Shown: one piece after another, positions 6,501 to 6,944 of the stretch
Layout: each line of letters opens with the position of its first letter
Position numbering within the stretch: position 1 is the first letter of the stretch
Origin: a virus
Taxonomy: Duplodnaviria; Heunggongvirae; Uroviricota; Caudoviricetes
Virus record (IMG/VR): IMGVR_UViG_2534681835_000032
Span: 1 to 14,811 of that record
Direction: 5' to 3' (one strand)
Length of the DNA: 14,811 bases
The notes under the pieces: model-generated
What the model saw: only the letters and a program-made list of their open reading frames with translations
What the model was told of the DNA's origin: nothing
Database searches by the model: none
Program-made: the position numbers and the translations under genes

Positions 6501-6698
6501 TCCATTTATTGGATTAATTCAATATTCTCGCTGTAGAGGTATAGCCGAGGCCACCAAAGCCCGGAGGTGGTGAAATAAAACCGGGCATAACACGAAGGCG
6601 CATTTCCGGTATCCATAAAGAGTCGGTCTTGTCTGTCAAATTTAAATGGTGGGAGTGCGCCTCCGGTTGTGAATAACAACACTGCTGTGTGTAGTCTT

Positions 6699-6745
6699 GG
6701 CGGCATCAGTTTTTTCTTGAAGTTCGACTGATGTCCGCCCTTTTT
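6699..6745 (+). terminator. Candidate intrinsic terminator ending a ~250-nt non-coding stretch
   Basis: 11-bp stem (6699-6709 with 6728-6739, one bulged T) followed by CTTTTT (6740-6745); the loop is long (18 nt), so strength is uncertain. Confidence 0.4.
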
Positions 6746-6944
6746 AAAGTGAATTTTGTGATGCGGTGAATGCGGCTAAGCGCACGCGGAACAGTTAAAA
6801 AGCTATTGTCCTTCGTAGCAGAGTTATGGGTGAAATATCCGGCGTTAATTGTTAACTGGTTAACGTCACCTGGAGGCACCAGGCACCGCATCAACAAAGT
6901 TCACTTCAGTGATGAAAGGTGAGAGAAAATGTTGAATGTAGCTA

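Follow-up and report, generated by a model that had tools for sequence, protein, structure and literature searches.

What occupies the roughly 430 bp that follow ydaF in a Rac-type prophage in which no sieB gene is found? The question concerns positions 6501-6930 of a 14,811-nucleotide stretch of viral DNA (IMG/VR record IMGVR_UViG_2534681835_000032, hereafter the window, to whose numbering all positions refer unless stated), between the end of ydaF, confirmed at 6500, and a Rha-family gene, the presence of which was also confirmed. A first-pass annotation had left the choice between a structured RNA or long untranslated region (UTR) and a decayed remnant. The former option is the one borne out, as an orthologue of the small RNA (sRNA) KilS and, right behind it, a folded leader element akin to the STnc100/PasD family were found here. 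It is highly likely, in our opinion, that the stretch is a long UTR of the Rac early-left operon (racR-ydaG-ydaF ... kilR-recET) which specifies these two plus-strand RNAs. Its homology, its non-coding status, the folds with their covariation and the genomic context are established, and the segment 6501-6930 is a conserved functional UTR, neither a hole left by sieB nor a decayed gene.

The relation to sieB was clarified by comparison with K-12 (DH5a, MG1655), where the order is ydaF, sieB on the opposite strand, an intergenic region of ~440 bp, and kilR. Positions 6526-6903 of the window align with this sieB-kilR intergenic region, at ~90% identity. As sieB sits between ydaF and the homologous region in K-12, the 430 bp are not at the place of sieB, as had been supposed, but are its neighbour, sieB itself being missing here. 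The absence of sieB, already remarked upon, was verified by tblastn of K-12 SieB over the whole window, the best match having an E value of 0.75 and lying outside 6501-6930. The K-12 sieB site corresponds to a short junction after the ydaF stop codon (6501..6525), and K-12 homology begins at position 26 of the query (6526 of the window). At the other end, it stops near 6903-6906 and picks up again only 13 nt ahead of the start codon of kilR (ATG, 7824); a module of ~900 bp is therefore inserted between the leader and kilR. Of 5426 complete E. coli genomes, 4633 have a match to the stretch, at a median of two places each; the commonest core corresponds to query positions 226-403 (6726-6903 of the window). 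Copies identical or near-identical to it were present in Shiga toxin-producing E. coli strains, for example of serotypes O111:H8, O157:H7 and O45:H2.

The first of the two RNAs is no newcomer, being annotated in K-12, which explains the core of the finding. The MG1655 RefSeq record holds a non-coding RNA gene, kilS (b4833, 1418405-1418502), within the sieB-kilR spacer. KilS (98 nt) was predicted from Hfq RIL-seq (RNA interaction by ligation and sequencing) data and verified by northern blot (Bar et al. 2021, PMC8175672); it was classed as derived from the kilR 5′ UTR, with evidence for an independent transcription start, transcription being possible from a promoter of its own, and its RIL-seq partner in K-12 was yncL (PMC8175672). 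The orthologue in the window (97 nt, 6649..6745, plus strand) is identical to b4833 at 92 of 98 positions, with five substitutions and one indel. It lies in the Rac early-left operon on the kilR strand, with kilR 1078 nt downstream because of the inserted module. It consists of a structured 5′ part (6651-6655/6661-6664), a seed (6669-6698), a terminator hairpin (6699-6710/6727-6739) and a U-tract (6741-6745), and its minimum free energy (MFE) is −35.4 kcal/mol (z −3.46). Two elements pointed out earlier find their place in this layout: the GGAG/CTCC pair (GGGAG at 6651-6655, CTCC at 6661-6664) falls inside the 5′ part of KilS, and the candidate terminator 6699-6745, whose stem is followed by TTTTT, is the KilS terminator, a hairpin of ~12 bp followed by UUUUU. 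A simple terminator scan missed this hairpin, its loop being longer than 8 nt. To judge from its sequence, the copy in the window would be expressed as an Hfq-type sRNA of ~97 nt.

Upstream of KilS, the plus-strand segment 6526..6648 is conserved and non-coding. By alignment, its counterpart in K-12 Rac is in the intergenic region, 5′ of the divergent sieB, and the segment presumably carries the KilS promoter. The CCACC and GGTGG sequences previously noted there are indeed present (6551-6555 and 6566-6570), but the hairpin that they were thought to form is unsupported, since 6526-6648 folds no better than shuffled sequences (z −0.03).

A covariance-model search for structured RNAs returned DicF- and STnc100-like matches, both below the Rfam gathering score. 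The DicF model (RF00039) matched 6686-6740 with 42.8 bits, for a gathering score of 48; it gave 39.1 bits with K-12 KilS and 76.7 with true DicF. Alignment of the Rac and Qin loci showed that they have in common the terminator base, GGCGG...CCGCC(C)TTTTT. Directly 5′ of the terminator, on the plus strand, the segment 6669..6701 is similar to nt 48-80 of RprA and is the probable seed of KilS. An exact 16-mer, TGCTGTGTGTAGTCTT (6683-6698), is common to KilS and RprA, compared to a longest match of 13 in 100 shuffled windows. The Rfam RprA model (RF00034) gave 24.6 bits on the window (E 3.2, cutoff 70), and its partial alignment shows the same segment. The resemblance suggests that this prophage sRNA carries a seed copied from an sRNA of the core genome. 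KilS could thus be a prophage-made chimera, with the seed of RprA and the terminator of DicF; this link was not found stated in the searchable literature, in which the KilS report (PMC8175672) mentions neither DicF nor RprA.

Several seed variants were observed on this one terminator scaffold (among the loci are L028/L119 in Shigella and L008 in E. albertii), namely the DicF type, the KilS/RprA type, a Shigella type (TGTGAAGTACCAGTTGGCGG) and hybrids in which the seed is KilS-like but the hairpin resembles that of DicF. With different seeds on the same terminator, the seed looks like an exchangeable cassette. Regarding targets, a helix is predicted between CUGUGUGUAG of KilS, in the stretch common to RprA, and CUAUACACAUAG in the yncL 5′ UTR, at −40 to −34. 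In a crude duplex test, the KilS seed gave no complementarity signal with the ftsZ translation-initiation region (z ≥ 0); DicF against ftsZ was matched or beaten by 13 of 500 shuffles in the same test.

The second RNA, at 6747..6906 on the plus strand, was recognised by the Rfam STnc100 model (RF02076) with 40.6 bits (gathering score 47, E 3.5e-7). The match spans positions 22-154 of the 206 of the model; the 3′ terminator tail (155-206) is absent, and no terminator follows 6906, by either the Rfam alignment or the terminator scan. An E-value search of Rfam with 6300-7300 yielded no ribozyme or riboswitch family. The element folds with an MFE of −50.7 kcal/mol (z −3.42) into five plus-strand helices: a closing stem of ~22 bp, P1 (6747-6768 / 6884-6906), which starts right after the KilS U-tract, then P2 (6772-6776 / 6782-6787), P3 (6788-6790 / 6838-6840), P4 (6842-6848 / 6860-6866) and P5 (6869-6873 / 6879-6883). 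A pseudoknot, also on the plus strand, joins 6792-6798 (CAGUUAA, after P3) to 6852-6858 (UUAACUG, in the P4 loop). The sequence oddities listed for this part of the stretch are accounted for by the fold. The near-palindrome GTTAACTGGTTAAC, actually located at 6851-6864, one base off the coordinates first given, is the P4 loop, that is, the 3′ arm of the pseudoknot, plus most of the 3′ strand of P4, and the repeats CACCTGG (6867-6873) and CACCAGG (6877-6883) hold the arms of the conserved hairpin P5.

Relatives of the element were gathered with the motif TCACCNGGAGGCACCNGGCAC, taking one genome per species, and at least 120 stretches across Enterobacterales were obtained; sampled canonical copies scored 67-88 bits on STnc100. 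Alignment of 111 distinct copies produced a five-helix consensus in which double changes were seen at 14 of 25 pairs. Paired cells amounted to 95.5% in this alignment, for 81% in shuffles and 36-45% with slid partners, and the covariation score of 0.411 (0.147 when shuffled) was reached by none of 500 shuffles. Two helices are kept in the Rac/Qin copies by compensatory swaps: P2 goes from CCCCC/GGGG to GCGGC/GCGC, with CG-to-GC changes at three pairs, and P5 from CCGGG/CCCGG to CCUGG/CCAGG (GC to UA). The pseudoknot helix is also supported, its longest form measuring 6.3 bp on average family-wide, versus 4.8 (standard deviation 0.10) in cross-sequence controls. For the long P1 of leader-type copies, defined below, the helix score was 20.4, compared to 8.3 for shuffled arms, and in Citrobacter and Klebsiella copies the P1 arms are wholly different in sequence, still complementary. 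Unpaired nucleotides, the GGUGAAU motif and the GGAGGCACC loop, are highly conserved across Enterobacterales.

Compared to ordinary base-pairing sRNAs, the STnc100 family as a whole is far more highly structured, with its five covarying helices and a pseudoknot of the H type, the latter missing from the Rfam consensus line. Its range includes Kosakonia, Pantoea, Rahnella, Erwinia, Klebsiella, Enterobacter and Salmonella. IpeX, the K-12 sRNA of DLP12 located downstream of nmpC, was considered as a possible K-12 member and rejected, as no STnc100 match was found in MG1655 between 573.5 and 579.5 kb.

Copies with a Rac/Qin-type P2, hereafter called leader-type, numbered 89 instances and 38 distinct sequences in genomes and IMG/VR. 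Their surroundings differ sharply from those of canonical copies. Counting distinct copies only, an intrinsic terminator was present just upstream in 31 of 38 leader-type and 7 of 87 canonical copies, and downstream in none of the former and 30 of the latter; a Shine-Dalgarno sequence and an ORF within 80 nt, with no intervening terminator, were found after 36 of 38 leader-type copies and 6 of 87 canonical ones. The upstream unit in leader-type loci is almost always a DicF- or KilS-type sRNA, and the ORF which follows is dicB, kilR or the start of the Rha module. The same element is the dicF-dicB spacer of the Qin prophage: Rac and Qin have in common the terminator base and the next ~180 nt, up to dicB or kilR. 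Canonical STnc100/EcOnc27 is found downstream of stx2B, and PasD near Q and lysis genes. The element is a divergent member of the STnc100/PasD family, and the dicB/kilR leader would form a distinct leader-type branch of this fold. The membership of the leader in STnc100/PasD, the pseudoknot and the long P1 were not found stated in the searchable literature, where no statement tying STnc100 to the dicF-dicB or kilS-kilR spacer was found either; we consider these to be modest extensions.

Other settings were encountered during this survey. In phage P7 (locus L126, AF503408.1, 2501-2616), a related copy is found within the ban operon, which is under C1 control, with tRNA-Thr on one side and terB on the other, and phage D6 also carries the element, so that the arrangement of an element followed by an ORF exists outside lambdoid phages. 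Some canonical STnc100 elements abut tRNA genes (L089, 4776-5127; L114, 3634-3790); in L089, the element ends at 4903, the tRNA starts at 4902, and two further tRNAs follow. In E. coli AVS0787 (L003, 3086-3169), a “partial DicB” pseudogene called by the Prokaryotic Genome Annotation Pipeline (PGAP) is a translated STnc100-like leader (VLWVDSLYPALIVNWLTSPGGTRHRINK), from which it follows that some reference DicB proteins bear a spurious N-terminal extension into the leader.

How might the two RNAs work together? In the dicBF operon of Qin, the stretch has its counterpart in the long UTR that contains dicF. DicF is reported to arise in two ways, as a 53-nt form by termination and as a 72-nt form when RNase III processes the read-through RNA. 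The 19 nt beyond the end of 53-nt DicF fall inside the 5′ strand of P1, and by analogy the ~22-bp P1 helix is a plausible RNase III substrate. For the present strain we infer expression, RNase III cleavage and an effect on the downstream gene, as follows. Termination at the KilS terminator would release a free sRNA, acting in trans by base pairing through its seed, UGCUGUGUGUAGUC, predicted to be single-stranded. Read-through RNA would instead fold into the pseudoknotted five-helix element, and RNase III, by analogy with dicBF, would cut P1, parting the sRNA from the downstream message and giving the latter a new, structured 5′ terminus ~20-30 nt ahead of the following start codon. Such cleavage would tune a toxic division inhibitor, kilR in K-12 and dicB in Qin; in the window, the read-through RNA would enter an isrK-C4-Rha module instead of kilR. 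As a tentative extension, the leader-type STnc100 module, always placed between a swappable sRNA terminator and a toxin gene, might be a cis processing or insulation device by which RNase III sets the split between sRNA and toxin mRNA, KilS being an RprA/DicF chimera. The links on which this processing device is built were not found stated in the searchable literature.

Cryptic prophages encode KilR and DicB, both toxic inhibitors of cell division, and leak-proof silencing as well as stress-induced expression of such genes affect survival. A single conserved, pseudoknotted and probably RNase III-processed leader module, joined to one or another of a set of exchangeable sRNA seeds (DicF-, KilS/RprA- and Shigella-type), would offer a handle on the split between sRNA and toxin output, and the functionally obscure, widespread STnc100/PasD family would gain a second, cis-acting context.

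Several points weigh against this interpretation. Both Rfam matches are below their gathering scores (42.8 versus 48 bits for DicF, 40.6 versus 47 for STnc100). Expression of KilS is known from K-12 and is presumed for this strain; the promoter scan found no consensus sigma-70 site 5′ of 6649, and in the crude duplex test the KilS-yncL duplex was not significant compared to shuffles. The invariance of the 3′ motif of the element is partly an ascertainment effect, as this motif was the search key. The RNase III cut in P1 is deduced by analogy, from a secondary citation on DicF. Finally, the leader is not adjacent to kilR here, and any cis role may be altered or lost.

One alternative is that the element 6747-6906 acts mainly in trans, as an excised, stable Hfq-binding sRNA like PasD, STnc100 and EcOnc27. 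The canonical members are stand-alone sRNAs, 30 of the 87 distinct copies having a downstream terminator; Hfq binding and targets have been reported for PasD and EcOnc27; and an RNA of ~115-140 nt would be freed if RNase III cut both strands of P1. Leader-type copies, on the other hand, have neither terminator nor promoter of their own and are directly followed by an ORF in 36 of 38 cases, and the element in the window lacks the terminator-bearing 3′ tail (model positions 155-206), so that we hold a predominant trans role to be rather unlikely. The element could also be a sensor, riboswitch-like or protein-binding, through which a signal gates expression of the division inhibitor. A complex pseudoknotted fold, with the unpaired GGUGAAU and GGAGGCACC loop conserved across Enterobacterales, would suit a sensor. 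Nevertheless, the Shine-Dalgarno sequence and start codon are outside the element, no alternative structure that could serve as expression platform was found, and the contexts differ widely, from after stx2B to before terB in phage P7 or directly before tRNA genes. A sensor is, in our view, improbable.

Two further explanations were weighed. The shared 180 bp might be a mere recombination linker between prophage modules, conserved as DNA, and they do lie where modules meet, at a site of exchange for sieB, the sRNA seed, dicB, kilR and the Rha module alike. Yet double changes keep the base pairs in distant genera despite unconserved DNA sequence, and G-U pairs are found on the plus strand only, which makes a simple linker quite improbable. 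Alternatively, a small protein gene might be hidden in the stretch, be it the 9-codon ORF 6826-6855, the 50-codon ORF 6770-6922 or a minus-strand ORF; ORFs of 41-66 codons are present, and the length of the 9-codon ORF is kept in relatives. But the minus-strand ORFs 6506..6706 and 6706..6897, which exist and had been taken for noise from the start, contain stops or frameshifts in ~83%-identical homologues, and so does the plus-strand ORF 6770..6922. As for the 9-codon ORF, its ATG is replaced by TTG and most of its residues are changed in relatives, and it is located within helices P3 and P4. All ORFs of at least 30 amino acids in the region were scanned against Pfam, with sub-threshold noise as the only outcome and none at or near a family cutoff. 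PGAP has no annotation between ydaF and the Rha coding sequence (CDS) in an identical locus. The initial opinion that 6501-6930 has no convincing ORF was thus upheld, and a hidden gene is very improbable.

That the stretch is pseudogene debris, a decayed remnant of sieB or of another gene without present function, is barely credible, since, even if sieB is missing relative to K-12 and one genome has a PGAP “partial DicB” pseudogene over the equivalent stretch, what is translated in this pseudogene is the RNA element, tblastn with K-12 SieB, YdfC, YdfB and DicB and with a 124-aa neighbour protein gave no match in 6501-6930, and the stretch displays both the conservation in 4633 of 5426 genomes and the compensatory base-pair changes described above.

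The long UTR with KilS and the leader thus being the reading we retain, its downstream border deserves a description. The junction with the isrK-C4-Rha module, 6907..6930 on the plus strand, takes in a small hairpin (TCAC-TTCA-GTGA, 6902-6913) and the ATG at 6929 that PGAP takes as the Rha start; the same leader/isrK-C4-Rha junction was seen in ~10 of the 89 leader-type loci. The promoter announced at 6945 was found again by the promoter scan, as a plus-strand promoter-like site at 6945-6973 with 10 of 12 consensus matches, which ends 7 nt before the isrK match (start 6980). Both isrK (6980-7056, plus strand, 68.6 bits) and the C4 antisense RNA (7081-7168, plus strand, 78.1 bits) scored above the Rfam gathering score. 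A weak Rfam c4-a1b1 match at 6967-7019 (plus strand) overlaps isrK.

The PGAP Rha CDS, 6929-7777 (282 aa), reads through isrK and C4 and starts 294 nt upstream of the Rha part. The Pfam Rha domain corresponds to residues 119-203 of the ORF starting at 6929. The first 98 codons (6929-7222) match Pfam Phage_ASH with 57 bits, and the NCBIfam match concerns the Rha part only (residues 108-209), with none in these 98 codons. Among 10 distinct copies, variable sites were distributed as 29/34/30 over the three codon positions upstream of nt 294 of the ORF, and as 58/40/116 downstream. There being no third-position excess in the first 98 codons, the PGAP start is probably over-extended, and the true start of the Rha-family regulator (7223..7777, plus strand) is probably the ATG at 7223; translation of RNA genes may account for part of the Pfam Ash match. 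A sequence on the plus strand at 7170-7185, AGATTTGCACCTCCGG, resembles a C4 target site and lies ~40 nt upstream of this probable start. C4-target-like sites flanking the C4 gene would fit an antisense control of rha similar to that of P1 immI. For annotation purposes, we recommend that kilS and a structured leader replace the present blank; the start of the Rha CDS probably needs correction.

The window as a whole is a Rac-type prophage, in reversed orientation relative to K-12. Gene order begins with ydaS/ydaT-like genes on the minus strand, ahead of a racR-like repressor (5503-5967, plus strand), ydaG (6203-6337) and ydaF (6348-6500), which ends directly before the stretch under study. On the 3′ side of 6501-6930 come the “Rha family” CDS, kilR, recE, recT, ralR, the RalA RNA, xis/int and the SraC/SdsR locus. 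The kilR gene (7824-8045, plus strand) has a 73-aa translation nearly identical to K-12 KilR and is annotated by PGAP in the identical locus. Repression of nusG by OxyS leads to increased kilR expression and recovery from oxidative damage (PMC5793797). Additional RNA genes were recognised: the sok antitoxin RNA at 151-325 (minus strand), the RalA antitoxin RNA at 12465-12643 (minus strand), and the SraC/RyeA-SdsR/RyeB pair at 14205-14349, on both strands. As this pair lies just past the integrase gene (13001-14077), the Rac-like prophage adjoins the sdsR locus.

Comparison with known systems places each part of the stretch. The closest is K-12 KilS, with which the window copy has in common its place in the operon, its terminator and its seed, the lengths being 98 and 97 nt; unlike the situation in K-12, sieB is absent upstream here, and the ~900-bp isrK-C4-Rha module separates the copy from kilR. 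With RprA, the likeness is limited to the ~30 nt 5′ of the terminator, which are near-identical; the 5′ stem-loops of RprA are absent from KilS, and nothing else is common. The DicF region of the Qin dicBF operon has the same layout, made of a DUF1391 gene, a long UTR, an sRNA with a GGCGG...CCGCC terminator, a spacer of ~180 nt and a division-inhibitor gene, but KilS differs from DicF in its 5′ arm and hairpin loop and has no predicted complementarity to ftsZ. Lastly, the leader element has in common with STnc100, PasD and EcOnc27 the P1-P5 architecture and the GGUGAAU and UCACCnGGAGGCACCnGGCACC motifs, with compensatory changes in P2 and P5, and is set apart from them by the lack of a 3′ terminator tail, by a P1 of ~22 bp and by its position, wedged between an sRNA terminator and an ORF.

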